DNA of 37,386 bases from contig JAAOMT010000612.1 in the NCBI GenBank assembly GCA_016748015.1, forward strand, positions 1-37,386. The letters are read 5' to 3'. The stretch is from Geosiphon pyriformis uo1. Lineage: Eukaryota > Fungi > Glomeromycota. The position numbers were made by a program, and so were the translations under genes. Numbering within the stretch: position 1 is the stretch's first letter; every line of letters begins with the position of its first letter. Under the pieces are notes generated by a model. That model made no database searches, was not told where the DNA came from, and saw nothing but the letters and a program-made list of their open reading frames with translations. Below are positions 5,191 through 36,999 of the stretch, one piece after another.

Positions 5191-6043
5191 TGTTACTTAT
5201 AGAATATAGGAAAGATACTAACATAAATTAGCCAATCAAAAGTAGGCACAGTAAATATGAAATTCCAAATTTTTTTTTAAAAGAATTGCAGAATTCCAGG
5301 AATTTCAGAATTCTCATACATGAATTACAGGATTCCAGAATTCCAGGATTCCTCTCAAAAGAAATTGCAAAATTCCAGGAATTTCAGAATTTTTGGTGTG
5401 AAAAATTAAGAAATTGAGAAATCTCAATTATGTATATATAGTAATAGCATTAGAAGTAAAAAAAACAGATCTTCCAGTTAGATTTCATCTAAGCAACCTT
5501 CCAATTCACAAATATCAATAAATAATTATTTGCTATCTCAATCTACTCTCCACTATCAACACTTCATGTTGATAGTAATTGATACTTAACCATGCTAGAA
5601 CAATAGCTCTTGATCATGGCTATTGATGGGATACTAACTTGCAATTGCTTTTACTTATTTCTTTATTTTCTTTTATTTTTTTGTATTTCTTTTGTTATTT
5701 CTTTGGTTTTACTAAATTGATTAAGGATTAAGTGCTGAGATACAGATATTATAGGAACTGGTAAAAGACCCATAAAACAAGGGTAGAACACTCATAGATT
5801 TGAGGATAGCTTATCAGAAGAATTACCAGTTACCATGCTGAGAAAAAAATTTGACGAAACTGTGGTTTCAGGAAGCTACAGATAAAACCATCAATTAAAA
5901 TCTCTGTCCATTATACAAAGAACTTCACAACAAAACCTTTAAATAAACCACACCTGCAGATATTATCAATGTCAACAAATCAATTAAGCACCAAGTTATG
6001 GGTTTGTTATTTGTTTTGAAACCCCAAATAATCACCTGTAATA
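5191..6043 (+). repeat. E1 5' LTR
   Basis: Colinear with 14282-15134. TATA-like TATATATA at 5433-5440, AATAAA at 5517-5522, hairpin at 5552-5576. Confidence 0.97.
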
Positions 6044-6045
6044 TT

Positions 6046-6061
6046 TAGTGCTCTCTGTGAG
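6046..6061 (+). promoter_or_regulatory. E1 primer binding site (TaGTGCTCTCTGTGAG)
   Basis: Lies 2 nt after the LTR and matches the E3 PBS TGGTaCTCTCTGTGAA. The consensus TGGTGCTCTCTGTGA is complementary to a tRNA CCA end; the tRNA is not identified. Confidence 0.8.
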
Positions 6062-6105
6062 ATATAATTCTACAGAGAACCAGTATCAACAGCAATTATC
6101 TAAAA

Positions 6106-9100
6106 GTGGCAGAATCAAAAAAGATAGGAGCAAACCATTTAGGATTTGCTAAATTCTTGTTCCAACAATACAGCCAATAATTAGAACTAAACAATAACCA
6201 CTTTCTAGCAGAATTCATCTTTAACTTCTACATTAACAATAAAATCACAGACTGCTTAGGAAAAACAGTTAACATTGAATCTGCAAGGGAAAATTTCTAT
6301 ACAGAATTATTTCAACATACCAGCTTACCAAGAAACTACAGTTTCACATCAAATCATCAGAGAAATTAATCAAACTATTGAAAGATATAAACAACAACAA
6401 TTCCCCATTACCTATGCAAACAAAGGCAAAGGAAAGTTACAAACACCAGCAGTAACACCAAAACAAATACAACTATCTACTTGGAAGAAAACTAGAGTTG
6501 AATCACCAACAAACTCATTATACCATTATACATCCGGAAGCACCATCAACATCCCATCAACAAGCACATCCACATTACACACAACATCAACATTTGGACA
6601 ACTCCTATTTCAAAGTAAACAAAAGAAAGCAGAATTATTAGGAACCTACAGTAATTATTTTAAAGAATTTAAATTGTAATCATTAACACCATTAGAATTC
6701 TGATCACTATTACCTTAACCAGATTTTGGAAACACAAGTCCCTGGGAGATAATGGAATCAAAAGAGAAAAAAAAAGAAGAAACTGAAGATCAGGAATTTA
6801 CTTATCAGAACTTGATTACAGTAAATCCAGAAATTGAAACCCCAAATATTCAAATCCAGCAAACTCCGAATAATCTAAACCCTGAGTTAATTAATCAGGG
6901 AAACTTACCTTCAGTAATCATGATCAATCAGCCACCAATTGTACCAATACTGGAACCAATTCCACTACAACCACTGCAGCAACCTATTTAATCACTGCTC
7001 CAACAACTACAACAACTGATTCAACCATCACAACAACAACTTCAACAACCACTACAACAATAAATTATAGCACCAATGGCATATATTTCTATTGCCAAAC
7101 TTGAAAAATTTACCAGCAAAGAGAATGATGCCCAAGTGTGGCTAAACGATATGGAAAAAGCCATCACAGCCAATGAATGAGATGATACTAGAGCCATGCA
7201 GGCCATTCCCTATTTTCTTTAAGATATTGCCAATTCATGGTATTAAAGCTTGGTTAACAAATCCCAAGATTTCAATGCATTCAAACTTGTATTCCTACAA
7301 TACTTTAGCAATAATAATAGTATTAATTGGCTAGTAAACACTTTTACTACTATCAAACAAGAGAAAAATGAAGCAGTCACTACATACTTAGGATGCTTTC
7401 ATAGAAATCTACACCAAATACAAGCAACTCAAGCTGATTATTTTACAGCACCACAAATCCTAAATCAATTCATCAGAAGCCTGCACAATAGCATCCTCCA
7501 ATGCATATGCTCAATGCATCCAGCAGATCTTTAAGTTGCAGTTACCAATGTCAGAAATTTTGAAGCAGCTGAACTCGAAGCTAACCATGCCTAAGCCATA
7601 AATCTAGTAATGAATAGATCATCTGAATTGGATTCCAAATTGAAACAATTCAATAATTTCATTAACCAGAAGCTTGAAAAGTACTTAGCTGACAATCATG
7701 CAATTTATTAACCACCCCAATGACACAATAATTTAGGAATCACAAATCACCCACAAAATCAGTTACATTCCTCATCATCATCCAATCAGTCATGGCAGCA
7801 AGAGACATATATTTGCCACTACTGTGGTAAACAAGGACATTTGAGAATTGATTATCAGTTAAGAATAAAAAACCAATGATCAGAAAATCAATATTGAAAC
7901 CCCAATTACAGGTTTTCAACTCTGAGTTATCAATCAAATACAAAAATATATCAACCAAATTACATACCTATGACACAGCTGCAAATTTATCAACCACCAA
8001 TTTATCAGCCAACAGCACTCATCATTTATCACTCACAGCCCCAACTCATTTATCAGCTGCAGCCTCAGGTAATTTATTAGCCCTAATAAATTCAAACACT
8101 GCTGCAGAACTTATCTCAAAACAGAACACAAGGCCAAGACTGACACAACAAAGCTGGAGATCATTGATGATAGTCTATCAACCAATCTCCAGTTCCATGG
8201 CACAATCATCAGGATCTTAACAATGGAATTTGAACACTGAGAACTCTCAAAACCCAAATGTCCAACACTATTTAAGTCTTCTAGTTACCTTAAAAAACGC
8301 CTCATCTAACAACTGGGAACTCAACCAACACAAACCACTTATCAGCAATATACTTCCAGCCACCATAACCAATAACGAATCATTAGCCACAATTTTTCTA
8401 TTTGAATTAAAAAAAATCACACCAGTTCCATTATTCAGTAGAGCTGGTCTTGACATCAAACCAATCATCACTATGTACACTAATGCAAAGGTTGATGGTC
8501 ATACCATTAAACTGATATTAGACAGTGGATCAACTAATAGCATCATTACATGACAACTCATAAACCAATTAGATTGCCAAGTTGATTACACTGCTAGCAC
8601 TCACATAATCACCACTGATGGGGCAACCAAAACTCCTATTGGCAAAATTAATGACTTTCTTTTTGAAGTTAATGGCATCATCATCCCCATCAAAGTCCTA
8701 GTGATGAAAGCAATTCAATATTAGACATTAGTAAGAAATGACTGGTTATCTAAAACCAATATCATACTTAACTAAACAATACAGGAGTTCTAACTCAGCC
8801 AAAATAACCAACACACATGAGTATCTGTCATGTGTGAACACTTCAAATCTATCACCATGTCATTAAACCCATTTATCAAATTTGAAGAAGAAAAAGAGAA
8901 ACCTATTTGGAAAGCCTATCAAGTCTCTTGGGCCAATGAAGACCACAATGAGCTGCCACCAATACTTTCTTGAGATGATAATGAAAAAGAGAAGAAAAAG
9001 AAAAAACTTATCTGAAGTACCAACCAAGCCTGGGAAATTGACAATAACCAGAAAGAACTAATAAATTAGGAGTGAAAAGAAAATAAAAAGAGAAAAGGAA

Positions 9101-12100
9101 AGAAGAAGGAAGAAGAACCAACACCTAACAGTACCACTACTTATAATTTCTACACTACACCCCAACAATCCACTTATTGCTGCCCAAAACTGGTATGCAT
9201 TGATTGTGACAAGAAATTGTCGTCAATGGGCACTTGTTGTAATGATGATAAGGAGTACACTTCAGCAACCAAATTCTACTGCTGTTCATGTGTTATTAAA
9301 TACTTCAGAAGACCAAAACAAGTTGAGAAATGGGACAATAAACTATGCTTGGCTTGTAGAAAAACTCTTTCAGATGAAGGAATGTGGAACAACATTCCTA
9401 GATGAGGAAGAACATACAATGAAATATGCCAGTATACAATTCTAATCAATGACTGGGTATGCAAGAACACATTAATCGATGACACTTAGAAACAAGCATT
9501 GTGACAATTGAAAGAATATCCCCATGACAAACATGAACTTTGGAGAATAGCATATGTGAAAACAGAAAGTGCAACAACTAGCAAACTCCTAGAAATCAAA
9601 AACAACCTTCTGTTTCTTTCTGAACCCGAATATGTCCAAACCTTCAACATCTTTGGCAACATTGAAGATGACCCAGAAGAATTCCATGAACATTACCAGC
9701 ATTTAGCACCCACTAGGGAAGAACAGAAGCAGCAGTTAGAACAATTGAATACTCAATTATGTCAACATTGCTTAATCCCATGTGACTTTCAATATTGTAA
9801 TAAGTGTGACTTCATTTACAATCCACCAACATGCATGATCTACATGATCCCAGAAGAAAACAAACCAATCAGCAACTGGGTATTGGAATCAGAATCAATT
9901 TTCAATCCTGATTCAAACTCCAACAACAATGACGATGACAAAAATAATGGTTCTAGCTCTGTGCAAAATGGCAACAATTTTAACTCAGATTCAAACTCCA
10001 ATTCAAAACCCAAACAATATATTGCACTTCCTAACTTTACCAAGGAACAAAAAACTTAAATGGTTTAGCGATAATAGTGAGGGTATCATACCAGAACATG
10101 CACATGATACTGATGTAGAGTTTGATCTAAGATATCCAGGAAAAGATGTCATAAAATTGGAACTCTATTTGTGCACCTGTATTAATCTCAAAATAGCATT
10201 AAAAATTCTAGTGACAACAATGGTTCAGTTAGCATTTAAGAGTAGCTTAGCAAAAAAGAGAATCAACATTAAAGGAGAAATAATTGATATAGGATACATA
10301 GGAAATATTATTGCTATGCTACAAAATGACTCAGAAAAAGCATATACTATAGATTCAAATGAAAAAATAGCATAGGCAATATTTTTATCTTTGGTAAAAA
10401 TAGCTCAGTTAGTGTCAATAGAAAACAGGGAAGAATTAGGAATTACTGTTAGAGGGATACAGGGATTCAGATCAATGGATAGAATAGATGTATCAGTTAA
10501 TATAACAGAAAAAGAGGTTATTGACAAAGAAGAAATTATCTCAATCTGTTAATCAATTTCTATTCCATCATATGACCAGTATATGTTAACCATAAAAAAA
10601 AAAGTAAAGAATCAAGCTCAGTTGTTTAAAGCAGAAGCCACTCTTTGTGAATCAGGAAAAATTGGACTCACTAATCTTTACATATCAGCCAAAAGCCCCA
10701 AAAACATCAAAATTCTTATCTACAACACAACAGGAAGTGTTATTGAAATACAAAAGGAAACCATTATTGGATATTTAACCACCAAAGTTGAGGATCAACT
10801 ACCAAACCACATTCCAGATTTTTCACAGCTTTGCAGATATGTGGACATTACATCACAAACTATCTATAAACAAAGTAAATATTATCTGCTCTAACCAGAA
10901 CAATTGAAACAAATAAACATGGGAAATCTAGACCCACTCCAACAGGTGCCAACTCAAGATATTACTTAACAATTTAAATAATATCTTTGCCAGTAAAAAT
11001 GAACTTGGCAGAACTAATATAATTCAGCACCAGATTAAGACTGGAGATACAATGCCAATAAAACAAAGAGCATATAGAGTACCACTAGCTAGTCATAAGA
11101 TTATTCATCAAGAAATCAATCAGATGCTTGACAACAGGCTAATTCAGTTATCAATGAGTCTATGGTCATTACCAGTGGTACTAGTCTGGAAAAAAAATAG
11201 AAAGATCCATTTCTGTGTGGATTATTGAAAACTAATGAAATAACCAAAGATGATAGCTATCCAACTCCAAAAATCCAAGAACTATTTAATGCTTTTAGAG
11301 GAAATAAATGGTTCTCAATACTGGATTTAGATAGTAATTATTGGCAAGTAACCATGGATCTAGCTGACAAAAAAAAACAGCATTTATTACAAGAGAAGAA
11401 AATTTCGAATTTGAAGTCATGTCATTTGGATTAATGAATACACCAGCCACATTCTAACAGCTAATAGAAATTGTGTACACTAGACTACTATGGAAGTCAG
11501 TAATCATATACTTGAATGACACCAATGTGTTCTCAAGAACATTCAATAATCATTTTCACCATCTACAACAAGTATTTGAAAGACTCAGACAAGCAAGACT
11601 GAAACTAAATGCCAATAAATGCTTCTTTGGAAAAACAGAACTAAAGTTCTTGGGACATGTTGTGAGCAAAGACAACATCAAAACAGATTCAGACAAGATT
11701 GAAGTTGTTAAGAACTTTCCAGTACCAAACAATCTTACTGAACTAAGAACATTCTTGGAATTTGCAAGGTATTATTGCTGTTTTATCAAAGACTTTTCTA
11801 AACTGGCTCAGCCATTTTATCATTTACAAACTAAAAATGTAAAGTATAAATAAACAGGAGTTCAACAAGAAGCATTTGACACACTGAGAAGAAAGCTTAT
11901 TTAAGCTCTAGTGTTGATGTATCCAGATCACAACAAACCATTTATTATCACTACTGATGCATCAGGCCAAGCATTGAGAGCAGTATTATCTTAGAAAAGA
12001 CCAAACAGACGAGAACATCTAGTAGTGTATGCCAGTAGAAGCTTAAGTCCAGCTGAAAAAAACTATGGAATACTAGCATTAGAACACTTAGCAATTTATT

Positions 12101-12312
12101 GAACAGTCATAAAATGGAAAAAATACCTGAATCAAAAATTTAAAATATATATGGATTACAAAAGATTGATTTTAATCCAGAAGCAAAAATTCGGAGATGA
12201 TTGCCATGCCAAATAGAAAATAGAACTTTCACTATTTAATTATATAGTACATTATAAAAAAGGAAAAAACAATGGAAATGCTGGCAGATTGTTGTGAATA
12301 AGACAAATCTAA
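6106..12312 (+). pseudogene. gag-pol: E1 ORF1 polyprotein (N-extension, Gag CA, CCHC, protease, Cys-rich domain, dUTPase, RT, RNase H), disrupted
   Basis: CA MAYISIAKLEKF at 7076; knuckle CHYCGKQGHLRIDY ~7814; LILDSG ~8512; dUTPase ~10060-10490; YLND (from YLDD) 11509-11520; RNase H TDAS ~11953. Many transition-derived stops and some frameshifts. Confidence 0.93.
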
Positions 12313-12342
12313 AAACATTTCAACCCAAAAATATAACAAAAG

Positions 12343-13568
12343 ATGAATATACAAAAATACCAACAACTCCAATATTATATAAATACCCAATTGTTCAAGG
12401 AAAAATTATCTCAAAAAGAACAAAACAACATAAAACAGCAATCAAACCATTTTATCAACTATCAAAATATACTTTATCAGAAGAACAAAAAAAATCCAGA
12501 CCAACCAACCAGAGAAAGAGACAATATTATTCAACATACACTTAGACTCAACAGCAGGACATTTTCATAAAGAAGCAATCATAGAAAAAACCAGAAAAAG
12601 ATACTATTGGCCATCAATATATCCAGACATCATCCAATATGTTCAAAGTTGTGATGCTTGTCAAAAAAGAGGTGGAACAAAACCCAGTAAACCATTGAGA
12701 CCAATCAAAGTGGGACAACTATTCAACTATATTAGAATTGACTTAGTCGGACTATTAACAATCACCAGCAGAGGCAACAGATATATTGCAATAGCCATGA
12801 ATTATCTTACAAAATAGCCAGAAGCAAAAACCATTCAAAGAGCAGATGCAGAATCCATTGCCAAATTCATCCATTAAGAGTTGATCTGTCGACATGGATG
12901 TCCAAAAGAACTACTATCAGATTAAGGAACCCACTTTGTGAACAGAACATTGACAGAATTGAGTCAAAGATTTGGAATTAAAAAACCATTGTCATTACCA
13001 TATTATCTACAAACCAATGGATTAGTAGAAAGATTCAATAGAATACTGTGTAAAGCAATTACCAGTTAAGATAAAAGTCATTATTTATCCAACAGAACCA
13101 ATAACTGAAGACAATTTTCAGGAAACATTGCTAAAAAAAACATATGACTTAATGAAAACACTAGAAAACAAATGGTGAAAAGCAGCTGATAACATCCAAA
13201 AGTCACAAGAAAAACAAAAAAAAAGACATGATAATCAACTATTAGACAAACCAGTTGAATTCAAGATTGAAGATAAAGTACTTTTACATCATACCAAAGC
13301 AGAAAAACAATGGAGTGGAAAATTTAATCCCAAATGGGATGGACTATTTTATATAAAAAAAATTCTTGGAAATAGAGCTTATAAATTAAAATGGGACAAC
13401 AAAATCTTAACCAAAGCAGCACATGATGATCAACTAAAACTATATCACCATATAATATCACTATCTACCAGTAATATTCCACAATTAGAAGTATAGAGAA
13501 TACTAGTACAACCAGATAAGATTTCACAAGATCTGAAACCAATTATCATCATTAGACCAAACACGTAA
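12343..13568 (+). pseudogene. int: E1 integrase as a separate ORF (HHCC, DDE, GPY/F; no chromodomain), disrupted, with an internal deletion near 13060
   Basis: ATG at 12343 (MNIQKYQQL); GHFH..CDACQ; IDLVG; SD*GTHF; QTNGLVERFN; WDGLFY. Confidence 0.9.
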
Positions 13569-13598
13569 AATTGAACAATAAAAAGAGTATATAAAGAC

Positions 13599-14267
13599 AT
13601 GGTAAACATGACGGAAGACTTCAGAAAAATGAAAATTACCGACAACATTTACTTACTAGCACAACAACTCTTTCAATTGATTCAACAACAAGAAATGGAA
13701 ATCACAATCAATCAACAAACTATCAAATACACAAACACCAGAAAAAGACCCTGGGATAAAGTATGGAGGAAAACAGAAAACACTGTTAACAAAATAATGG
13801 CAAAAATGAAACTGGTAATAGAAACACAACCCAAAGTTATTCAATATCAAAAGTTGAATATAGAAACCTGGAATTGGTGAACACAACAATTTCCAAGAAA
13901 CTTTTGTTACTTTTACTTGAAACAATATGTAAATATTCAGAATCTATATACAGATAAAACAAAATAATTATTTAACACAACAATACTACAACAACTGGAA
14001 CAATTTGTGAAGAAAAACAATTTAATTACACAAGCAAGAGCTATTTATTGGCTATATACCAGATTTCAAGATCGGCCAGAAATCTTGCTTAACACTAAAA
14101 TGAATACTGTTACTGTCAACCAAATAGAAAAATTGACCAACACCCAATTTGAAGAATTACAAAACAAAATAACACAAATAATTTTCAGAAAAAAAGTTCA
14201 AGAACTATTTAAGAATGGAGAATTAGAGCTAGAAAATTTGAGAGATCTCAATGGAGCTCAATATTAA
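13599..14267 (+). pseudogene. E1 ORF3, ~220-aa accessory protein of unknown function
   Basis: Track ORFs 13599-13880 and 14007-14267 share one frame, split by two stops. Homologous to ORF3 of E3 and E2. Confidence 0.8.
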
Positions 14268-14278
14268 AAAAGAAGAAA
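14266..14278 (+). promoter_or_regulatory. E1 polypurine tract
   Basis: AAAAAAGAAGAAA ending 3 nt before the 3' LTR. Confidence 0.8.
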
Positions 14279-14281
14279 TAA

Positions 14282-15134
14282 TGTTACTCATAGAATATAA
14301 GAAAGATATTAGCATAAATTAGCCAATTAGAAGTAGGCACAATAAATGTAGAATTCCAGAATTCCTTTTAGAGAAATTGCAGAATTCCAAAAATTTCAGG
14401 ATTCTTATACATGAATTACAGGATTCCAGAATTCCAGAATTTTTCTCAAAAGAAATTGCAGGATTCCAGAAATTCCAAGATTTTTGGTGTGAAGAATTGA
14501 GGAATTGAGGAATCTCAATTATGTATATATAGTGGTAGTATTAAAAGTAGAAAAAACAGACCTTCCAGTTAGATTTTATCTAAGCAACCTTCCAATTCAC
14601 AAATATCAATAAATAATTATTTACTATCTCAATCCACTCTTCATTATTAACACTTTATGTTGATAGTAATTGATACTTAACCACACTGGAACAATAGCTC
14701 TTGATTATGACTATTGATGGGATATTAACTTGCAATTGCTTTTACTTATTTCTTTATTTTCTTTTATTTTTTTGTATTTTTTTTGTTATTTTTTTGGTTT
14801 TACTAAATTGATTAAGGATTAAGCACTAAGATACAAACATCATAGGGACTGGTAAAAGACCTGTAAAACAAAGGTAGAACACTCATAGATTTGAGAATAG
14901 CTTACCAGAAGGATTACCAGTTACCATGCTGAGAAAAAAATTTGACGAAACTGTGGTTTCAGGAAGCTACAGATAAAATCATCAATTAAAATCTCTGTCT
15001 ATTATACAAAGAACTCTGCAACAAAACCTTCAGATAAATCACACCTGCAGATATTATCAATGTCAACAAATCAATTAAGCACCAAGTTACGGGTTTGTTA
15101 TTTGCTTTGAAACCTCAAATAATCACCTGTAATA
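14282..15134 (+). repeat. E1 3' LTR
   Basis: 853-bp copy of 5191-6043, differing almost only by transitions. Confidence 0.97.
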
Positions 15135-15138
15135 TCAT

Positions 15139-16157: not shown

Positions 16158-16392
16158 AATGTGTTAATAAAATCACAACTATTATTTATTATTAACTCTC
16201 TAATATCTTTTTTAAGTGATTATGTTTTTAAAACTTATCAAGTTAATTGTGTAACAGTCTAAAAAATATTTTTTAAGAAGTTAGAAATATATTGTATTAT
16301 GTACAGTTTTGTTTACATTAGATTGGATGTATTACTATTTATAATTGGAACTGTGATTAGTTAATACACAATATTTGTATTTGTGAAAGTGT

Positions 16393-17359
16393 TGTTACCA
16401 GTAGAATTTTAGCTATTAATTAACATGAAATTACCCTTATAATTCCTATAATTAATCAGTATATTAATCATTTCAAATTATTATTTATTATTTAATTAAT
16501 TATTACATATCACGATTCAATTAAAATAATCTAATTAGTATAACAGAAAGTAGGATGATTAAATTACACAATACTCTGAACTTTGTAACATTCTAAAAAT
16601 TCGCCAAAATTTACAGAAATTCGCCGAAATTATAAATAGTTCACCCAAATTAATCAATAGTTTAGCAAAATAACTTGTAGTTCATCAAAATGTATCTTTA
16701 ATTCACCGAAAATTGAGCAAAAAGAAAAAGTGCAAGTTCATAGACTAGTACTACAACAAATTGTATAAAAGAAGAGCTTTTTTCTTCAAGAAAATATATC
16801 TTACTTTAGATTTTATCACTAGAACCATTCCTATACACACAAAAAGAAATAAATATCAAATAATTCGAAAAACCAAATTCTTTAATTATTACATTTGAAA
16901 AATTCCCAAAACCCAATTAACATTTCGAAATTGATTAGCTAGCAATTTCAGTAAACTGTTAGTGACTCCAGGCCTGGATAGAAAACGTTTCCCTTGACAG
17001 AATTCTATTTCTTTTACATTTCTTTTATTTTCTAGTATTTTTTTATTACAATCATTAGAGTAGCCTACAGACAAAATTCCTGTAGAAGAGTTGACTTTCA
17101 CAGCAAAGTAACTACACATTTTTAGTGAGCTTCCAGATGAGCAATTCCTGAGAAAGAGTTGACATTTACTACAATGTAACTACATAAAGTAACTGGCAAG
17201 AAATTGGTCATTCCACTTATAAGCCCAGCAGTTCAAATTATAAAAGATAATTTGAAGATAAATTCAGTTATTGGGTTCAACTACTTTTAGAAAACGTGAA
17301 TTTGCAACCAACAGACAGTTACAATATTCAAGAAAAGAGACCAAAAACCTCTGGTAACA
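16393..17359 (+). repeat. E2 5' LTR
   Basis: 9-bp terminal inverted repeat. TATAAAA at 16764-16770, AATAAA at 16848-16853. Confidence 0.98.
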
Positions 17360-17361
17360 TT

Positions 17362-17372
17362 TGGTGCTATCT
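17362..17372 (+). promoter_or_regulatory. E2 primer binding site (TGGTGCTATCT)
   Basis: TGG lies 2 nt after the LTR. One transition from TGGTGCCATCT, which as I recall complements the yeast tRNA-His 3' end; assignment tentative. Confidence 0.75.
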
Positions 17373-17404
17373 TACAAAAATAACACAGCAACAACAAATT
17401 CAAA

Positions 17405-23046: not shown

Positions 23047-23113
23047 TACCAACATCAACACCAATAAAACACCAACAAACTTAATAGCAGAACAAACAAC
23101 AAAACTAACAACA

Positions 23114-24499: not shown

Positions 24500-24642
24500 A
24501 TTTTACAATAATTCTCTAATAAAAACACAAAAACAAAAATAGTAAATAATTACAGAAACACCCAAACCCAAAAACAAATAAAAACCCCATATCCAAAAAT
24601 AATTTTCTTTATTTTCTCTTTTCATAATTAGTCAATTTTATC

Positions 24643-25318: not shown

Positions 25319-25326
25319 GAAGAAGA
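25317..25326 (+). promoter_or_regulatory. E2 polypurine tract
   Basis: GAGAAGAAGA ending 3 nt before the 3' LTR. Confidence 0.75.
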
Positions 25327-25329
25327 TTA

Positions 25330-26319
25330 TGTTACCAGTAGAATTTTAGCTATTAATTAACATGAAATTACCTTTATAATTCCTATAATTAATCAGTATA
25401 TTAATCATTTCAAATTATCATTTATTATTTAATCAATTATTACATATCACGATTCAATTAAAATAATCTAATTAGTATAACAGAAAGTAGGATGATCAAA
25501 TTACACAATACTCTGAACTTTGTAACATTCTAAAAATTCGCCGAAATTTACAGAAATTCGCCGAAATTTATAAGAAATTCGCCGAAATTATGAATAGTTC
25601 ACCCAAATTAATCAATAGTTTAGCAAAATAACTTGTAGTTCATCAAAATGTATCTTTAGTTCACCGAAAATTGAGCAAAAAGAAAAAGTGCAAGTTCATA
25701 AACTAGTACTACAACAAGTTATATAAAAGAAGAGCTTTTTTCTTCAAGAAAATATATCTTACTTTAGATTTTATCACTAGAACCATTCCTACATACACAA
25801 AAAGAAATAAATATCAAATAATTCGAAAAACCAAATTTTTTAATTATTACATTTGAAAAATTCCCAAAACCCAACTAACATTTCGAAATTGATTAGCTAC
25901 CAATTTCAGTAAACTGTTAGTGACTCCAGGTCTGGATAGAAAACGTTTCCCTTGACAGAATTCTATTTCTTTTACATTTTTTTTATTTTCTGGTATTTTT
26001 TTATTACAATCATTAGGGTAGCCTACAGACAAAATTCCTGTAGAAGAGTTGACTTTTACAGCAAAGTAACTACACATTTTTAGTGAGTTTCTAGATGAGC
26101 AATTTCTGAGAAAAAGTTGACATTTACTACAACATAACTACATAAAGTAACTGGCAAGGAATTGGCCATTCCACTTATAAACCCAGCAGTTCAAATTATA
26201 GGAGATAATTTGAAGATAAATTCAGTTATTAGAGGTTCAACTACTTCTAGAAAACATGAATTTGCAACCAACAGACAGTTACAATATTCAAGAAAAGAGA
26301 CCAAAAACCTCCAATAACA
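25330..26319 (+). repeat. E2 3' LTR
   Basis: Copy of 16393-17359 with one extra ~21-bp tandem unit and a 2-bp indel. Confidence 0.98.
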
Positions 26320-26667
26320 GTGTCAACTATAAATTCAATGTTTATAATATGATTGTTTCTATAGTGAATAATAATTTTAATATATGTAGTCCAGGAGTTG
26401 TATAAAATATAAATTGCAATTATTGTAACACTAACACTTATATTGTTCAATATAATACTTGGCAAGATTCTTGTCCAAAGCTGCAATGTAAAGATTATAA
26501 GTTAGGCCTTTTTACTGATACATGTTTTGTAAGATCCTAAACTCTATCCAGTTCTATTATTTAAATACATAGTTGAGATATCTACTAGCTGCTAAAAAAA
26601 AGACTACTGTAGAGTTTTAGCAACTACTATTGCTAATTGTTTAATAGTAATAGTTTCCAATACATGG

Positions 26668-27593
26668 TGTTACAGGTGATTCTTTGGGTATTGAGTGAAT
26701 AACAAACCCATAACTTGGTGCTTAAAGCAATGGGTGATGATGATAATCTGAAGGTATTTTATCTGAAGGTTTTCCAATTGAGTTTTTTGTATAATATACA
26801 GAGATTCAATGATAACAGTTTATCAGTAGTTTCTTGAAACTATAGTTTTGTCAATTGTTTGCTCAGCTTAATGGTTGATGATTCTTCTGATATGATATCT
26901 TTTGTAAGTGTATACCAGTACTGTTTCCTAATGTTAGTTCCTCTGTAAGTTCTCCAAGAGTAAATATTGTTTAAGCAAGTTTATTCCTCTGTAAGTTCTC
27001 CAAGAATAAGTATTGTTTAAGTAAGTTTTATTCCTCTGTAAGTCCTCCAAGAGTAAATCCTTTAATCAAGTTAGTAGACAACAAAGAAAATAAAGAAAAG
27101 ATAAAAGAGAAAATAAGAAATAAGCCAAGGCAATTTGCAAGTTAGTATCCTGTCAATAGTCATGATCAAGAGCTATTGTTCCAGTATAGTTAAGTATTAG
27201 TTACTATCAACATGAAGTGTTAATAGTGAAGAATAAATTTGATATAATGAATAATTATTTATTTGAGGATTGTGGTAACTAAGCTAAAAATTCTTGGTGT
27301 CTTTTTTTTTTTTCTGCTTTTAACACTACTGCTATATATACATATTTGAGATTCCTTAATTTTTCAATTCTTTGTGATAGGAATTCTGGAATTCTTGGAA
27401 TTCTGCAATTCCTGATGAGAAAAATCCTGGAATTCTGGAATCTTGCGATTCTTTGTTAGAAAATTCTGAAATTCCTGGAATCCTGCAATTCTTCTGAGAA
27501 GAATTCTGAAATTTTACATTTACTACGTCTATTTCTGATTGGCTAATATCTACTTGCTAATAATAATATACTTCCTATATTCTATGAGTAACA
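26668..27593 (-). repeat. E3 3' LTR
   Basis: TGTTAC...GTAACA ends; copy of 36074-36999. Confidence 0.97.
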
Positions 27594-27596
27594 TTA

Positions 27597-27608
27597 TTCC
27601 CTCTTTTT
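27597..27608 (-). promoter_or_regulatory. E3 polypurine tract
   Basis: AAAAAGAGGGAA on the minus strand, ending 3 nt before the LTR. Confidence 0.85.
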
Positions 27609-28266
27609 AATATTGAGCTCTATCGAAATCTAACTCTTTTAATTCCCTCTCTTGAATTATTTCTTGAACTTCTTTTTCGAGTATTACTTGTGTTATTTGA
27701 GTTTGTAGTTCTTCAAATTGGGCATTGGTCATTTTTCTTAATTGATTACTCGTAACTGTATCTATTGCTGTGTTAAGTAAGATTTCTGGTCAGTCTTAAA
27801 ATCCCATATATAGCCAGTAAATGGCTTAAGCTTGTGTGATCAGATTGTTCTTTCCCACAAATTGTTTCAATTGTCTTAGTATTGTTGTGTCAAATAACCA
27901 TTTTGTTTTGTTGGTGTACAAATTCTGGATATTTACATATTGTTCCAAGTAAAAATGACAATAGTTTTTCAGAAATTGTTGCATCCACCAAGTCCAAGTT
28001 TCTCCAATAAGTTCTTGGTGTAATTTGACTATTTGTTGTTCTTTCATGGCCAATTTTACCTTGGTCATGATTTTATTAACAACATTTTCAAGTTTTCTCT
28101 GTACTTTGTGTTGTGGTATTCTTGCAGTACTTTTGTATCGAATAGTTTGTTGATTGATTGTAATTTCTATCTTCTGGTGTTGGATTAATTGAAAGATTTG
28201 TTGTGCTAATAAATGGATGTTGTCGGTAATTTTTATTTTTCTGCGTTTTTCTATCATGTCAACTAT
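27607..28266 (-). pseudogene. E3 ORF3, accessory protein of unknown function
   Basis: Track ORF 27826-28257 continues in frame through stops to ...ELDFDRAQY*. Clearly homologous to E1 ORF3. Confidence 0.8.
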
Positions 28267-28290
28267 GTCTTTATATATTCTTTCTGTTGA

Positions 28291-29673
28291 TCAATTGGAT
28301 GTGTTGTTATTAATGATGATAATTGGTTCTAGATCTCATAGAATCTTATCTGGTTGGACTAGTATTCTCTGTACTCTCAGTTGTAAAATATTACTGGTAG
28401 ATGATGATACTATATGGTGGTATGATTTCAGTCGATCTCCATGTGCTTCTTTGGTCAAGATTTTGTTATTTAATCTTAATTTGTAAGCTTCATTTCCTAG
28501 AATTTCTTCTATGTGAAATGGTCCATCCTATTTGGGGTCAAATTTTCCACTCCATTGTTTTTCTGCTTTGGTACAATGTAATAGTACTTTGTCTCCAATC
28601 TTGAGTTCAACTGGTTTATTTGGTAGTTGGTTATCATGTCTTTCTTTTTGTTTTCCTTGTGACTTTTGTATGTTATTAGCTGCTCTCTGTTATTTGTTTT
28701 TTAATGTTTCTATTAAGTCATATGTTCTTTTCAACAATGTGTTTTTGAAATTCTCTTCTGTTATTGGTTTGGTTGGGTATTTGCTGACTTTTATTTTCAC
28801 TGGTAATGTTGCTGTTCTACCATATACTAATTCAAATGATGTTGCTTGTATAGTATCTTGCTTCATTGTTCGATAAGCAAATAGTACTAATAATATCAAC
28901 AAATCCCAATCGTTTTGGTTTTCTTGGCTGAGCTTAGCTATTGCTTTACACAATGTTTTGTTGAATCTTTCGACTAATCTATTGGTTTGTGAATGGTATG
29001 GTAATGATAATGGTCTCTTAATTTCGAATCTTTGGCTCAATTCTGTTAATGTTCTGTTCACAAAATGTGTTCCTTGGTCTGATAATAATTCTTTTGGACA
29101 TCCATGTTGACAAATCGAATTCTGATGAATAAATTTGGCAATGGATTCTGCATCCACTCTTTGAATTGCTTTCACCTCTGGCCATTTAGTGAGATAGTTT
29201 ATGGCTATTGCTATGTATCTGTTTCCTCTGCTGGTGATTGTTAATGGTCTGACTAAATCAATTCCAATACAGTCGAATAATTGTCCTAATTTGATTGGTC
29301 CTAATGATTCACTGGGTTTTGTATCTCCTCTTCACTAACAAGCATCACAATTTTGAACATATTGGATAATGTTTGAATACATTGATGGCCAATAGTATCT
29401 TTTTCTGGTTCTTTTCATGGTTGCTTCTTTGTAAAAGTGTCTTGCTGTTAGATTTGAGTGCATGTTGAATAATATTGTCTTTTTTTCTGGCTCTGTAATT
29501 ACTCTGGTTGGTTGCTTTAGATCTCTTCTATTTTTCTGATAAAGTATATTTTGGTAAGTTATAAAATATTTTGATTGTTGTTTGATACTCTTTCGTTCCA
29601 TTTGAGATAAATTCTTCTTGAACTGTTAAGTGTTTATATAATGTTAAAGTTGTTGATATTTTTGTATGTTTAT
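28291..29673 (-). pseudogene. int: E3 integrase as a separate ORF
   Basis: (M)NIQKYQQL, with ATA at 29673; H..H..CDAC; SDQGTHF; ERFNKTL; *DGPFHI. Confidence 0.92.
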
Positions 29674-29735
29674 CTTTTGTTATATTTTTCATTGGTATTG
29701 TTCTGGTTTTGTTATATTTTTGGGTTGAAATGTTC

Positions 29736-32700
29736 TTAGATTTGTCTTATTCGTAACAAACTGTCAGCATTTCCATTGTTTTTTCCTTTCTTATAGTGTA
29801 TAGTATATAGTGTAAGTATATTGTGAGAGTGCCATTTTCCATCTGGATTGGCAACTGTCATCAAATTCTTGCTTTTGAAGTAATATTAACCCTTTATGAT
29901 CCGTGTATATATCAAACTTTTGGCTCAAGTATTTGTTCCACTTCATGACTGCCCAATAGATTGCTAAATGTTCTAGTTCTGGTGTTCCATAGTTCTTTTC
30001 AGCTGGTGTTAGACCTCAGCTGACATATGCTACTGGATGTTCTCTGCCATCTGGTCCCTTCTGAGATAGTACTGCTCCCAATGCTTGGCTTAATGCATTG
30101 GTGGTAATAATGAATGGTTTGTTGTGATCTGGGTAGATCAGTATTGGAGCTTGAATGAGCTTTTTTCAGAATATCAAAAGCTTTTTGTTGACTTTCTGTT
30201 CATTCATATTTTGTATTCTTGGTTTGCAGATTATTGAGTGGTTGAGCTATCTTTGAAAAGTTCTTTATAAAGCATCAATAATAGCTTGCAAATCCCAAGA
30301 ATGATTTCAATTCAGTCACATTGGTTGGTACTGGAAAGTTCTTTACTATCTCTATTTTTTCTGAATCTATTTTGATGCTGTCTTTGCTGACTATATATTC
30401 CAAGAATTTTAGTTCTGTCTTGCCAAAGAAGCACTTTGTTGTATTTAACTTTAGTTCTGCTCTTCTTAGTCTTTTGAACACTTGTTGAAGATGATAAAGA
30501 TGATCATCAAATGTTTTTAAGAATACATTGGTGTCATCCAAGTATACAACTACTGATTTCCACAATAAGCCAGTATAAACAATTTCCATTAGTCATTAGA
30601 AAATGGCTGGGGCATTGGTTAAGCTGAAGGGCATTACTTCAAATTCAAAATTCCCTTTTCTAGTGGTGAATGCCGTCTTCTCCTTGTTGGCTGGATCCAT
30701 GGCTACTTGCCAGTAACCACTGTTTAAGTCTAATGTTGAAAACCATTTGTTTCCACTGAAAGCGTCGAACAATTCTTGTATTCTTGGGGTTAGATAGCTG
30801 TCTCCACGAGTTACACTATTGAGTTTCTTATAGTCCACACAAAATTGGATTTTTCTATTCTTCTTCCGGATGAGTACCACTAGTGATGATCATGGGCTCA
30901 TTGATGATTGAATTAGCCCATTGTTAAGCATTCGGTTTATCTCTTGACAAATGATCTCATGGCTAGCTAGTAGTACTCTGTATGCTCTTTGTTTAATTGG
31001 CATTGCATCTCCAGTCTTGATTTGATGCTGGATGATGTCAGTTCGGCCAAATTCATTTTCATTGACAAAAATGTCATTGAAATTGTTGAGCAACATATTG
31101 AGCTGCATACATTGGAGTGGGTCTAAATTTCCCATGTTCATTTGTTCTAATTGCTCTGGTTGGAGCAAATAACATTTGCTTTGTCCATATATTGTTTGTG
31201 ATGTGATATTAACATATTCACAAAGCTGTAGAAAGTCCAGAATGGTGCTTGGTGATTGATCCTCTATTTCAGTGCTTAAGTATCCAATGGTGGTTCCGGC
31301 TGGTATTACTATGACATTTCCTGTGTTATTATAGATGGGAATTTTGATGTGGCTGTAATTTTTGGCTGGTATATGGAGATTGATGAGTCTAATCTTTTCT
31401 GATTCACAAAAGGTTGGTTTTGCTTCAAAAATCTGATTCTGTTCTTTTACTTCCCACTTTATCCCTACTATGTACTGGCCATATGATGGAATGGAAATTG
31501 TTTGACCTGTTGAGATAATTTTTTCTTGGTCAACTATTTCTTCTTCTGCCATATTTATTAATACATCTATTCTACCTGTTGATCCAAATCTCTGTATTTC
31601 TTTTGCTGTTATTCCTAATTCCTCCTTATTTCCCACTGATATTAACTGCACTATTTTCTCCAGAGACAAAAATATTGCCTGTGCTATCTTTTTGTTTGGC
31701 TCTATGATATAAGTCTTTTCAGAGTAGTTTTGTAGCATAGCAATGATATTTTCTACATATCCTGTGTCAATTATTCCTCCTCTTATATTAATCCCTCTTT
31801 TCGCTAAACTACTCTTAAATGCTAGTTGAACCATTGTTGTTGCTGAGATTTCTAATGCTACTTTCAGATTAATACAAGTGTGTGAATGTGGTTCCAATTT
31901 AATGGCATCTTTTCCTGGATACCTTAGATCAAACCCAGCATCAGTATTATGTGTATGTTCTGACATAATATTTTCATTATTGTCACTATACTATTTTAAC
32001 TCCTGTTCTTTGAAAAGATCTGACAGTGCAATGTATTGTTCATATTTTGGGTCGAAGTTTGAATCTGAGTTGGAATTATTGTCATTATTATCACTAATTT
32101 GAATGAAACTAGAACTAGTGTTTTTGTCATCATCATTGTCGGAGTTTGAATTGGGATTGAATGGTGATTTCAATTCAGATGTGCAGCTGCTGATTGGTTT
32201 GATTTCCTCTGGGATTGTATAGATCATGTATGATAGTGGATCATAAATGAGGTCACACTTATTACAATATTGGAAGTCATAGAGAATCAAACAGTGGTCA
32301 CATAATTGGGTGTTTAGTTGTTCTAAATGCTGCTCCTACTCTTCTCTTGTAAGTGCCAAATTTTGGTAGTATTTGTGAAAATCTTCTGGACCTGTTTTTT
32401 TATCCATGAAAGCATCTGAGTTAGGAATATGAATGATATCGACCAGTTCTGGGGGATTGTTCTTAATTTCCAGTATTTCACTGGGTGTAGCACCTTCTAC
32501 TTTGGCATTGGCCATTTGCTAAATCTTCTCTTCATTGTGGGGGTAACCATCTAAATGATTGAGTGTTCAGTGCTATGCTGCTGTAATCGGGGTACTATGA
32601 CTCATCCAGTTATTAATAAAAATCATGTATTGGCATAAAGTGTTACATATTCCTCCTTGACCAGGAATGTCATTTCACATTCCTTTGTTGAGCAGTTGTT

Positions 32701-35700
32701 TGCCACAAGTGAGACATGGTTCATTGTTCCACTTGCCCTGTTTCTTTGGATAGCCATAGCATTCTTTATGGTATGGCTTACAATAGTAATGAGTTCGCAT
32801 CCAGTGGTCTTTGTCTGGCGTGATCCATGCTCTCATGAAAGAAAGTTTCTTTCCACAGTCTTTGCATTTGAGTGGAATATATGGTGGTTGTGGTAGTGGC
32901 TCATGGACTAAGTATGAACTGGTCCAGCCACTGGTTATTTTGCTGGTGCTGGTAGTCTCTTCCAGTGTGGTTTTTTTCTTTTTTCCTATTCCTAATCGGC
33001 CAGTTCATTGTAGTCGTTTTTTGTTTCCCAAGTTTGGTCAGAGGTCCAGGTAAGTTTTGTTTTTTTTTGTTTTCCTTTGACATTGCCATTCCAAGAAGGT
33101 ACTGGTGGCAACTCATTATGGTCTTGGTTGGCCCACGAGACTTGGTAGGCTTCCCAGGTAGGTTTCCTTATTTCTTTCTTAAATTCGATGAGTGGTTGGG
33201 CGTTACTTAGCTTAAAGTGACCACAAGTGGCTGGTGTTTGAGTATGCTGACCACTAAAGGTTAATTGTAGTTCTTGGGTGGTCCAATTGAGGGTAGTGTG
33301 GGTTTTCAACAACCAATCATTGTCCATGAGAGCTTAATATTATGTGGCTTCTATTGCCAAGACTTTAATGGGTATTATAATATCATTGATTTCAAATGGG
33401 AAATCATCGATTTTGCTGATTAGAGTTTTGGTTGCTCCATCAGCAGTGATTATACAAGCACTAGCAGCATGATCAACTCAGTGACTTAATTGGTCCATGA
33501 GTTGTTGTGTGATAATGCTGCCTGCTGAACTGCTGTTTAGAATCAATTTGATGGAATGGCCATCTACTTTGGCATCAGTATACATTGCTGTAATGGGTTT
33601 CTCTTCAAGGGCGGCTTCACTGAATAATGGGACTGGAGTGGTTTCCTCAAACTCAAATGGAAAGATGGCTGCTAATGTTTTATTTTCAGTGACCATTTCT
33701 GGTGATATGTTGCTGGTAAGTTTTTGAATTGGGTTGGTTTCTAGGTTGCTGGGTTTGGCACCTTTTGGGGTAACCAGGAGACTTAAATAGTTCTGGGAAT
33801 TTGGGTTTTGGGTGGCACCAGTACCTGAATTCCAAGAATGCAATCCTGGTGATAAGTTGGAGGAACTGGGGATTGGTTGGTGGACAACCATTGCTGATCT
33901 CCAGTTTTGTTGTGTCATTCTCGGTCTTTGGGTTCTGTGTTGAGGTAAGTTTTGGGGCAGTGTTTGAATGGTTTGAGATTGATAGATTACTTGTGGCTGC
34001 GATTGATATATTATAGATGGCTGCAGTTGATATATTGCTGGTGGCTGTGGTTGATAAACTGGAGTCTGATATACTGGTGCTTAATAAATTGGCTGCTGCA
34101 TCATTGGCAAGTAAGTGTTTTGATTTTGCTCTTGATTTTGATATTGATTTGGAATTTGGAATCAGTGATTGGGATTTCGATGTTGATTTTCCGATCGTCA
34201 GTTATAAGTGTTGCAGTTGGCTCTTATTTGGCCTTGTTTACCACAGTTGTGGTAGACATGTGTCTCTGGCTGCCACTGCTGATTGCCTGATGTTGAGGAA
34301 TGCACTTAATTTTGGGAATAATTGTAGTTTCTCTGATTACTGTGTCTTTAGAGAGGTTGATAAATGGACTGATGGTTGTTAGCTAAGTATTCCTCAATTT
34401 TCTGATTGATGGTATCACTGATTTGCTTCAATTTGGAATCCAAATCAGATAATCCATTCATTACTAAATTTACAGCTTGAACATAGTTGGCTTCTAGCTT
34501 AGCTGATTCGAAATTTTTGGCATGTGTAACTGCAGCTTAAAGGTTGGCAGGGTGTAATGAGTATATGTGTTGCAAAATGCTACTGTGCAGACCACAAATA
34601 AAATGGTTGAGTATCTGGAGTTCTGTGAAATACACGGCATCAATGGCTTGAATTTGGCATAAGACTCTATAAAAGCATTCTAAGTATGTTGTGACTGCTT
34701 TAGTATTATTCTGTTTGATTGTGGTGAAAGTATTGGCTAGATGATTAATACTGTTATTGTTGCTAAAATATCCCAGAAAGGCAGTTTTGAATTGTTGAAA
34801 TGTTTGTAGTCTGGTGGCTAAACTCTGGTACCAAGAATTAGTAGTTTTTTTGAGAAAGTATAGGATTATCTGTAAGGCTCTGGCATCATTCCAATTGTTT
34901 GCTATGATGGTCTTGGAGATGTCATTAATCCATGCTTGAGTGTTGTCTTCTTTGCTGGTAAAGTTTTCTAACTTGGCAATAGATGTATAGACCATTTGGT
35001 TTATGTTTAGTTGTTATTGTGGCTGCTGTAGTGGTTGTTGTTGCAGTGGTTGTTGCTGAGGTGGTCTTTGTGGCTGTTGGATTTGTGGATTTGGTTGTTG
35101 AAGTGGCTGCTGAATGGGTTTGACTATCAGATCAATTGGTGAGTGATTGATAACAATATTTGGAGGTACGTTTGGTGGATTAATTAAATCGGGGTTCTGA
35201 TTGTTTTGATTTTGCTAAGTTTTAATATTCGGAGTTTCAATTTCTGGATTTTCTATGTTTGGATTTCACGGAGTTTGAACATTCAGAGTTCTGAATTCCG
35301 AGTTTTCTGAGATCAGATTTTGGTAAGTAAATCCTTAATCTTCACTTCTTTTTTCTTCTTCTTCTGATAATTTCTGTAGAGTAGCAGTTCCAAAATCTGG
35401 TTGGGATATTGGTGATCAAATTCCTGATGGTGTTGGGGATTGTGATTTAAATCCTTCAAAATATGTGCCATATGGTCCTAGTAAGTCTTCTTTCTGTTAT
35501 TTGCTTTGGAACTGAAATCTTCCAAATGTTAATGTTGCGTTTGATGTGGACACGTCTGCTGATGAAATGTTAATGGCACTTTCAGGTGTGTAGTAATATG
35601 ATGGAATGGTTGGTGATTCTACTCTGTGTTTCTTCTAACTAGGTAACTGTATTCTTTTTGGTGTTGCTGCTGGTGTTTGTATTTTTCCTTTACCTTTGTC

Positions 35701-36012
35701 TGCATAGGTAATGGGAAATTGTTGTTGCGTGTATTTTTTAATGGTTTGATTAATTTTTCTGATGATTGGGGCGAAACTGTGATTTCTTGGTAAGCTGGTG
35801 TGTTGAAATAATTCTGTATAGAAATTTTCTCTTGCTGACTCGATATTAACGGTTCTTTCTAAACAGTCTGTGATTTTATTGTTGACATAATAGTTAAAGG
35901 CTGATTTGGCTGGGTAGTGATTACTGTTTAATTCTAATTGTTGGCTGTATTGTTGAAACAAGGATTTTGCAAATCCTAAGTGGTTGGCTTCTATAATTTC
36001 TGATTCTGCCAC
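29736..36012 (-). pseudogene. gag-pol: E3 ORF1 polyprotein (N-extension, Gag, protease, Cys-rich domain, dUTPase, RT, RNase H), disrupted
   Basis: GTG at 36012; CA MVYTSIAKLENF at 34995; LILNSS (from DSG) ~33540; dUTPase DAGFDL..GGIIDTGY..FGSTG ~31570-31990; YLDD ~30533-30544; ends RIRQI*. Confidence 0.94.
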
Positions 36013-36055
36013 GTTTGAATAATGTTGTTGGTGCTGGTTCTCTGTAAAATTATAC

Positions 36056-36071
36056 TTCACAGAGAGTACCA
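36056..36071 (-). promoter_or_regulatory. E3 primer binding site
   Basis: TGGTACTCTCTGTGAA lying 2 nt inside the 5' LTR. Confidence 0.85.
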
Positions 36072-36073
36072 AA

Positions 36074-36999
36074 TGTTACAGGTGATTCTTTGGATGTCGA
36101 GTGAATAACAAACCTGTAACTTGGTGCTCAAAGTGATAGGTGACGATGATAATCTGAAGGTATTTTATCTGAAAATTTTCCAATTGAGTTCTTTGTATAA
36201 TGAACAGAGATTCAATGATAACAGTTTATTAGTAGTTTCCTGAAACCGTAGTTTTGTCAATTGCTTGCTCAGCTTGATAGTTGATGATTCTCCTGGTACA
36301 ATATCCTTCATAAGTGTATATTAGTGCTGTTTCCTGATGTTAGTTCCTCCATAAGTCTTTCAAGAATAAGTATTGTTTAAGCAAGTTTATTCCTCCATAA
36401 TTTCTCCAAGAGTAAGTATTGTTTAAGTAAGTTTTATTCTTTTGTAAGTCCTCCAAAAATAAATCCTTTAATCAAGTTAATAGACAACAAAAAAAATAAA
36501 GAAAAGATAAAAGAGAAAATAAGAAATAAGCCAAGACGATTTGCAAGTTAATATCCCATCAATAGCTGTGATCAAGAGCTATTGTTCCAGTATGGTTAAG
36601 TATCAGTTACTATTAACACTTCATGTTGATAGTAAAGAATGAATTTGATATAATAAATAATTATTTATTTAAGAATTGTGGTAACTAAGCTAAGGATTTT
36701 TGGTGTCTCTTTTTTTTTTCTGCTCCTAACACTACTGCTATATATACATATTTGAGATTCTTCAATTCTTCAATTCCTTACAACAGGAATCCTGAAATTC
36801 CTGGAATCCTGCAATTTCTGATGAGAGGAATCCTGGAATTCTGGAATCCTGCAATTTCTCACCAGAGAATCCTGAAATTCCTGGAATTCTGCAATTTTTC
36901 TGAGAGGAATCCTAGAATTTCACATTTACTACATCTACTTCTGATTGGCTAATATCTACTTGCTAATAATAATTTACTTCTTATATTCTATGAATAACA
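36074..36999 (-). repeat. E3 5' LTR
   Basis: 926-bp copy of 26668-27593. Confidence 0.97.

Follow-up and report, generated by a model that had tools for sequence, protein, structure and literature searches.

In retroviruses, and likewise in retrotransposons with long terminal repeats (LTRs), the integrase (IN) enters the particle inside the Pol polyprotein. The locus analysed here raises the question of whether IN can be a gene of its own in such elements and, if so, how it would be expressed. The locus is a 37,386-nucleotide stretch of Geosiphon pyriformis uo1 DNA (contig JAAOMT010000612.1; this whole stretch is called the window), in which three complete but decayed LTR retrotransposons of two families, A, B and C, occupy positions 5191-36999. 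They appear to belong to a Ty3/Gypsy variant lineage that is real, widespread and, in all probability, undescribed. Its IN is separately encoded, and we infer an expression mechanism for it from sequence.

Elements A (5191-15134) and B (16393-26319) lie on the plus strand and C (36999-26668) on the minus strand. Their LTR pairs are 90.7, 96.2 and 87.6% alike, respectively, and transitions make up 95-99% of the LTR-LTR differences. A and C form one family (73.6% internal identity), from which B is divergent (55% identity to C in the reverse transcriptase (RT) and RNase H (RH) region). LTRs with ends of the TG..CA type, a primer-binding site (PBS), a polypurine tract (PPT) and target site duplications (TSDs) are all present, as in Ty3/Gypsy elements. 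The elements share one layout of open reading frames (ORFs): (i) ORF1, composed of an N-terminal extension, Gag, protease (PR), a Cys-rich domain, dUTPase, RT and RH, (ii) IN, and (iii) ORF3. Pfam matches were obtained for the capsid, CCHC knuckle, PR, dUTPase, RT, RH and IN (H2C2, rve) of element B and for the RT and dUTPase of element C; element A and the remaining parts of C were read by alignment. The Cys-rich domain of the window elements had no Pfam match, and Pfam found no chromodomain in the IN of B; chromodomain-bearing comparison rows do give a Chromo match. The TSDs are 4 bp long (TTAT/TCAT with a single C/T difference in A, GTGT in B and CCAT in C), and the 5-bp duplication typical of chromoviruses fails for all three elements. 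An earlier, sequence-only reading of this DNA had proposed exactly this: three insertions from two divergent families with one layout, 4-bp TSDs and no chromodomain.

The polyproteins of A, B and C all stop straight after the RH C-terminal motif (..RQI*/..RQY*), and IN starts downstream of this stop, at a distance of 30 nt in A (ATG, 12343), 62 nt in C (ATA) and 67 nt in B (ATA). The ATA of B aligns with the first Met of stand-alone IN homologues, and 71 of 120 homologues, among the matches listed in a length-limited search, start in the B-IN register. A search for longer proteins found 119, two of which are close (44-45% identity) and are gene models without the RH C-terminal motif; for the remaining 117, identity does not exceed 36%. 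We also collected 80 metagenome loci (given L numbers, e.g. L001) by IN DNA patterns, blind to ORF layout. In 48 of them the end of RH and the start of IN are both visible, and none of these 48 fuses RH to IN. Their junctions comprise 10 overlaps (-1 TAATG twice, -4 ATGA once, -8 four times, -14 twice and -20 once), two gaps of 2 nt, 28 spacers of 24-163 nt and eight gaps longer than 170 nt. The frame offsets 0, +1 and +2 are represented by 11, 19 and 18 loci, respectively, and, since all three frames occur, one fixed frameshift or readthrough is excluded. An IN scan of viral contigs returned two loci only, both unrelated.

Decay might have produced the split falsely, if an ordinary AUG-initiated gag-pol running through IN had acquired stops from CAA, CGA and TGG codons and lost an ATG. 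The copies are indeed heavily decayed, with the strong transition bias given above, and in A the IN start and RH share a reading frame, with two TAA codons between them. However, both TAA codons are common to C, the junction of B is out of frame, and a change of ATG to GTG would oppose the C>T/G>A bias. The absence of fusion among the relatives already refutes the split part of this explanation, which we regard as extremely improbable. The RH/IN split is a property of the lineage and not of decay, and the separate IN is shared by the lineage, usually together with ORF3. At these junctions no relative carries an ordinary gag-pol through IN. The three-ORF layout of the sequence-only reading held for the lineage as regards IN and, usually, ORF3, and failed to extend lineage-wide as regards the GUG start and the dUTPase/Cys-rich part. 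The Cys-rich/dUTPase query had no match in any of the 80 relatives, and because of this the window dUTPase is likely a local capture. An IN encoded within pol is a criterion of Ty3/Gypsy elements (Metaviridae) (PMC3248453, PMC10224137), an arrangement seen in none of the 48 junctions. We would file the elements by descent, as it appears from their sequences, as a Ty3/Gypsy variant lineage and not as a canonical member.

Phylogenetic placement was based on trees of 152, 58 and 38 rows, with 8, 4 and 5 of 61 caulimovirid-like rows, respectively, and with outgroups that were mostly unnamed rows and included no named GyDB or Repbase references. A scan for further caulimovirid genera brought up three loci, all of them already in the collection. 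The RT-RH sequences of split-IN rows formed one clade, supported at 99 by the Shimodaira-Hasegawa-like approximate likelihood ratio test (SH-aLRT) with LG+G4 (23 rows), at 93 in one tree and at 95/82 in the careful mixture tree. Errantivirus-like rows and further rows outside the chromoviruses group with this clade at 99/97, and a 99/97 branch separates it from the chromodomain-bearing rows. As judged from these alignments, the split-IN elements are a clade among non-chromovirus Ty3/Gypsy elements, in agreement with the earlier reading, which had contrasted the elements with fungal chromoviruses. The best PDB match was the RT of Ty3 (464 bits), versus 312 bits for that of cauliflower mosaic virus (CaMV), and the best tree places caulimovirids apart from the split-IN clade. 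Several results weigh against so simple a placement: (i) FastTree united 27 of 28 split-IN rows at 97 and left L080 outside; (ii) the stem of the clade is short; and (iii) approximately unbiased (AU) tests did not reject trees in which caulimovirids were joined to the window rows (p 0.37) or to the split-IN clade (p 0.62). The caulimovirid-constrained tree was 6.2 log units above the quick free tree, and the later careful tree was about 7 above the constrained one. The comparison with caulimovirids drawn in the sequence-only reading stands as an analogy of expression strategy; as kinship it is unsupported by the best tree but not rejected by the AU tests just stated.

Where a host of IN or ORF3 is named, it belongs to the Glomeromycotina (Rhizophagus, Entrophospora, Cetraspora, Glomus, Gigaspora and Geosiphon); stand-alone IN gene models occur in Rhizophagus irregularis. 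Most metagenome loci are without host assignment. The homologues of the 5' region of B, at least 120 among the matches listed, are all Geosiphon pyriformis gene models (57-85% identity).

An ATG-started ORF follows IN in 30 of the 41 loci with room for one, and about 25 of these 30 ORFs are linked by phmmer among the matches listed, some weakly. The ORF3 profile matched 624 cluster representatives at E<=0.001. The window ORF3s match that of L001 (E 1e-7 to 4e-16, in a small database); against the core profile the matches are weak (0.006-0.05), yet they fall exactly on the three ORF3s. The encoded protein (130-230 amino acids) has conserved Arg/Lys and Tyr positions, and its AlphaFold model is all-helical (predicted local distance difference test 94.3, predicted template modelling score 0.87). 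No Pfam or PHROG family was found in more than one of 28 members, no Baculo_F match was obtained, and no PDB sequence matched under E 0.2. A suspected likeness to DUF1016_N was rejected, with E 0.11 in one member only. Foldseek gave no match at E<=0.001 in PDB or BFVD, the best VIA Z was 5.0 and Atlas matches stayed under 0.9; the absence of matches to this model does not make the fold a new one. Judging from the model, ORF3 is a conserved helical family without a Pfam or fold match, and it likely binds nucleic acid. At the ORF3 position, L017 (1945-2886) carries a NUDIX-domain protein, and L018, L059/L067, L064 and L072 carry other unrelated ORFs. Across the clade, ORF3 often extends through the PPT into the LTR.

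The 5' end of ORF1 shows a second departure from the usual arrangement. In A, B and C its first codon is a GTG, preceded by A at -3 and followed by G at +4, located at the homologous positions 6106, 17405 and 36012, respectively. The extension domain of about 100 amino acids is homologous between the families (23.9 bits versus a best score of 8.9 in 500 shuffles) and has a third-position excess in the comparison of A with C (p 0.036). In 94 Geosiphon gene models the GTG column reads V in 78, M in 12 and L in four. Between the PBS and the capsid the three copies contain three ATGs in 1034 nt, four in 1078 nt and four in 762 nt, where 11.7, 11.2 and 8.7, respectively, are expected (p 0.002, 0.02 and 0.06), in contrast to 14-24 ATGs per kb in the tested RT and IN stretches. 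One ATG of this region is common to A and C, and the four of B are copy-specific: its internal in-frame Met is a Met in none of the 119 compared, and only a minority of family contigs carry its three out-of-frame ATGs. Conservation of a Met begins with the capsid start. These patterns support a GUG-opened, AUG-free and protein-coding extension in the two window families.

Among the 5' ends of 19 relatives, most open the extension with ATG, and because of this the GUG start is, on the sequences compared, a feature of the two window families and not clade-wide. The GUG start and AUG-free leader of the sequence-only reading accordingly stood at the family level, through the GTG column and the ATG scarcity, and fell as a trait of the lineage. 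The extension of B did not match the relatives' extension profile. In L080 (5086-5700) the Gag extension is ATG-free for 207 codons and has a CTG in the context ACC-CTG-G, possibly an independent non-AUG start. A Gag N-terminal domain with an H..H..CxxC pattern is shared by L007, L008, L018, L027, L028, L033, L042, L046, L051, L052 and L066; it had no Pfam match in the members scanned.

The region between RH and IN carries signals of its own. The spacer test used 27 of the 48 junctions, after 10 overlaps, two two-base gaps, eight gaps longer than 170 nt and one near-duplicate had been dropped. These spacers (24-163 nt, 2152 nt in total) contain five ATGs versus 27.5 expected, and none of 1000 shuffles was as low; at the IN start, 25 of these 27 loci have a purine at -3, and an equal number have G at +4. 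A hairpin of roughly 40 nt, with conserved loops, a 12-nt bulge and an 8-nt loop, lies 5' of the IN ATG in 24 of the 80 loci (L015, L020, L022, L024-L027, L030, L033, L034, L036, L042, L044, L045, L048, L049, L052, L053, L056-L058, L061, L069 and L070), once per locus, on the sense strand and ending a few to about 30 nt before the ATG. Pairing is seen in 97% of its cells, compared with 25-56% in slid controls, and both sides vary in 7 of its 10 pairs; the structure was derived from the same rows, so that the slid control favours it, and 20 of the 24 matches had gone into the model. The hairpin had no Rfam match (14 loci) and no exact-pattern match in viral and prokaryote collections.

Pol shows other features as well. 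An acidic tail of 220-340 amino acids follows RH in L027 (4348-5163), L034, L042, L052, L058, L066, L069 and others; it ends in a conserved Cys/His-rich domain without a Pfam match and mostly co-occurs with the hairpin. In six of the eight loci with an in-frame stop just after the protease, this stop is TGA followed by CTA (L021:872, L028:2500, L029:2884, L051:3292, L054:904 and L079:782), which we take to be a readthrough context. L003 and L018 have TTTAAAC, presumably a slippery heptamer, before TAG at a -1 overlap.

The reading we favour, with a probability of about one half, is that all three genes are translated from one RNA, by leaky scanning from the GUG to the capsid AUG and by termination-reinitiation at IN and ORF3. 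Some ribosomes would start at the GUG, giving an extended polyprotein, and most would continue scanning until the capsid AUG. Of the ribosomes that terminate at the RH stop, some would restart at the IN AUG across the overlap or the short AUG-free spacer, assisted in one subgroup by the conserved RNA hairpin, and IN would thereby be kept scarce. ORF3, likely a nucleic-acid binder and perhaps a packaging or translation helper, would be made by the same restart. IN would enter particles without belonging to the polyprotein, and reverse transcription and integration would otherwise be ordinary, leaving 4-bp TSDs. Stop-start precedents are SART1, Cryphonectria hypovirus 1 (CHV1), Helminthosporium victoriae virus 190S (HvV190S) and the termination upstream ribosomal binding site (TURBS) of caliciviruses (PMC10275272), and leaky scanning has a precedent in rice tungro bacilliform virus (RTBV; PMC5902531).

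The main competitor, possible but clearly less probable, keeps the same anatomy and derives IN and ORF3 from subgenomic mRNAs, made from internal promoters or by splicing from a long leader. A strong start context at the IN ATG would suit such mRNAs, as would the long, ATG-containing spacers of some loci. One subgroup repeats the words TAACGG/TAACCC in the spacer, which we take to be Myb/Reb1-like, and the A/C leader has TACTAAC and a pyrimidine tract; RTBV itself makes P4 from a spliced RNA (PMC5902531). An acceptor AG at a constant distance is lacking: the last upstream AG is 3 to 93 nt away, and two of 20 loci have none within 100 nt. Moreover, stop-start overlaps recur in several branches, and the best-conserved upstream element covaries as RNA structure. 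That element, a covarying hairpin just 5' of the IN ATG in 24 of 80 loci and without an Rfam match, could also point to internal ribosome entry at IN, or to a 5'-trimmed RNA protected or released by the structure. We consider this quite unlikely: the hairpin is absent from the window and from most loci, its model was built from only part of its matches, and it could equally help reinitiation.

The favoured combination of leaky scanning and reinitiation comes with caveats and with observations weighing against it as well. Every window copy is broken by stops and frameshifts, and the single long ORF1 is deduced because, from the GTG to the RH stop, each copy is broken at places of its own. Valine in the gene models is no proof of a GTG codon, and the family-contig variants (among 40 of 142 variant rows) are compatible with a sizeable ATG minority at this position. 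ORF3 is absent from 11 of the 41 loci with room and replaced in about five more, and the best hairpin match in the window had E 0.88. Reinitiation of the TURBS type loses strength past about 30 nt (PMC10275272), yet most spacers are 40-100 nt long, and the eight of 48 beyond 170 nt contain 2-33 ATGs. The short 5' untranslated region of a subgenomic mRNA would account equally well for spacers free of AUG and for the good start contexts. Two restarts after long ORFs are inefficient without a helper, and any helper here is putative.

The features of the window elements are arranged as follows. Element A (plus strand) is flanked by TTAT (5187-5190) and TCAT (15135-15138), as read in the sequence. 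Its 5' LTR (5191-6043) has ends TG..TA, the latter likely a decayed CA, with U3 repeats and a TATA near 5432; a 2-nt spacer precedes the decayed TGG.. PBS (6046-6061; compare C, 36071-36056). The broken ORF1 (6106-12312) runs from the GTG through the extension, Gag (capsid ATG 7076), PR, Cys-rich domain, dUTPase, RT and RH to the stop at 12310-12312. It is followed by the RH-IN spacer (12313-12342; 30 nt, no ATG, one extra TAA common to C), the IN ORF (12343-13568; own ATG, 17-nt and 134-nt deletions), ORF3 (13608-14267; ATG common to C, ending at the PPT) and the 3' LTR (14282-15134).

Element B (plus strand) lies between copies of GTGT (16389-16392 and 26320-26323) and consists of a TG..CA 5' LTR (16393-17359), the PBS (17362-17376), the GTG-started Gag extension (17405-18121) with its four ATGs, and the region from the capsid ATG through RH (18122-23046; stop 23044-23046), which has copy-specific frameshifts and encodes Gag, CCHC, PR, the Cys-rich domain (about 20026-20270), dUTPase (20809-21198), RT and RH. 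An A/C-rich spacer of 67 nt without ATG (23047-23113) leads to the IN ORF (23114-24499), whose start has decayed to ATA and which encodes H2C2, the DDE core and a GPF motif, with no chromodomain. ORF3 (24643-25349) has one frameshift near 24945 and runs through the PPT into the 3' LTR (25330-26319). In element C (minus strand) the 5' LTR (36074-36999; TSD CCAT 37003-37000) is followed by the PBS (36056-36071), the broken ORF1 (29736-36012; GTG 36012, capsid ATG 34995, stop 29738-29736) with Gag, PR, the Cys-rich domain, dUTPase (31960-31577), RT and RH, the IN ORF (28291-29673; start decayed to ATA), ORF3 (27607-28257) and the 3' LTR (26668-27593; TSD CCAT 26667-26664).

A GGAGCTC-like word occurs 5' of the PPT in the window (14250-14281, 25300-25329 and 27625-27594) and at many clade loci. 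The U3 of family A/C contains 39-41 nt repeats rich in TTCCAGAA/TTCCAGGAA (5280-5415, 14370-14506, 27354-27513 and 36760-36919), presumably heat-shock-element-like. Over positions 5191-36999 the CpG observed/expected ratio is 0.18, and LTR transitions fall equally in CA, CT and CC contexts, i.e. without the CpA-only pattern of repeat-induced point mutation. Positions 1-3170 hold tandem and dispersed repeats (unit of about 105 nt; 250-300 nt blocks 99% alike), arranged around N gaps (1547-2361 and 3538-4463); they are possibly a satellite or an assembly duplication. A further sequence, L094 (3214-10908), encodes a chromodomain-bearing Gypsy polyprotein with Dam-like and C5 methyltransferase domains; methyltransferase captures by Gypsy elements are already the subject of papers.

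In the literature searched, Repbase, GyDB pages and paper supplements lying outside it, neither an LTR lineage whose IN has its own ORF nor an account of LTR element anatomy in arbuscular mycorrhizal fungi turned up, and we lean towards the lineage being undescribed. The boldest version, a family-level lineage of reverse-transcribing elements in fungi of the arbuscular mycorrhizal type, with a freed IN, three genes on one RNA through GUG leaky scanning and repeated reinitiation, an undescribed structured RNA, and ORF3, of unmatched fold, as transactivator of reinitiation or IN carrier, is unlikely to hold as a whole. If true, the lineage would offer a living model of how elements might come to lose their integrase, as in caulimovirids. 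A clade with a separate IN needs other means of setting the amount of IN and of packaging it, which could be tested in the intact relatives. Several recoding signals would also be combined in the clade (a GUG start, the TGA-CTA readthrough context, a slippery site and stop-start overlaps), along with an RNA motif not yet described and a protein family without assignment. Since at least 120 of the 'hypothetical proteins' annotated in G. pyriformis represent pieces of family B, element pieces likely inflate the gene counts of these fungi; LTR elements cover 41.2% of this genome (PMC11952901).

Several known systems resemble these elements in part. Troyka, Kuafuorterviruses, Odin and lokiretroviruses are recently described LTR lineages reported from animals. 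Troyka, Odin and lokiretroviruses, considered as possible precedents for a separate IN, proved wrong leads. Troyka differs from the window elements in its CG..CG ends, its 3-bp TSDs and its lack of a GPF/Y motif, and its Gag-Pol is fused (PMC12440569); Odin and lokiretroviruses keep IN in Pol and have a dual RH (PMC9040795, PMC7947760). The window polyprotein ends at a single RH, and the relatives' tails gave no RH Pfam match, unlike the tether and second RNase H of those elements. Fungal Gypsy elements with dUTPase (Postia PosPlaTy3-5, Phanerochaete, Tuber Tmt1), whose RTs were not among the tree rows, are closer in one respect, as PosPlaTy3-5 has dUTPase between PR and RT; as described there, however, their Pol, in a layout of one or two ORFs, includes IN (PMC2864245), unlike the elements studied here. 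Stop-start elements (SART1, CHV1, HvV190S and caliciviruses) share TAATG/ATGA overlaps and, as in our relatives, structured RNA near the junction (PMC10275272), but none is an LTR element, spacers here are often 40-100 nt, and reinitiation is here putative.

Caulimoviridae (RTBV, badnaviruses and CaMV) have a polyprotein ending at RH, a non-AUG start, an AUG-free stretch and a polycistronic layout (PMC5902531), and dUTPase is present in some badnavirus-like rows. They differ in having no LTR, no IN and a caulimovirus coat domain; the window elements do not show that family's combination of coat and movement proteins with neither LTR nor integrase. Their RT-RH is 28-32% identical to the first row of the clade profile, as compared with 31-45% (mostly >40%) for Metaviridae-like rows, and the likeness is best taken as analogy, kinship being unsupported though not statistically rejected. 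The closest relatives would be the non-chromovirus Ty3/Gypsy elements (Metaviridae 'Branch 2', including errantiviruses; Llorens 2009, PMC2774666). Shared with them are LTR, PBS and PPT, the order PR-RT-RH-IN, a Ty3-type capsid, an RVT_1-type RT and an H2C2-DDE-GPF integrase. The clade nests at 99/97 beside an env-bearing errantivirus-like row; ORF3, by its model a small soluble helical protein, differs from a baculovirus-F-type Env. What sets the elements apart from this group is an IN in a separate AUG-started ORF, to which the window families add a GUG-started Gag extension.

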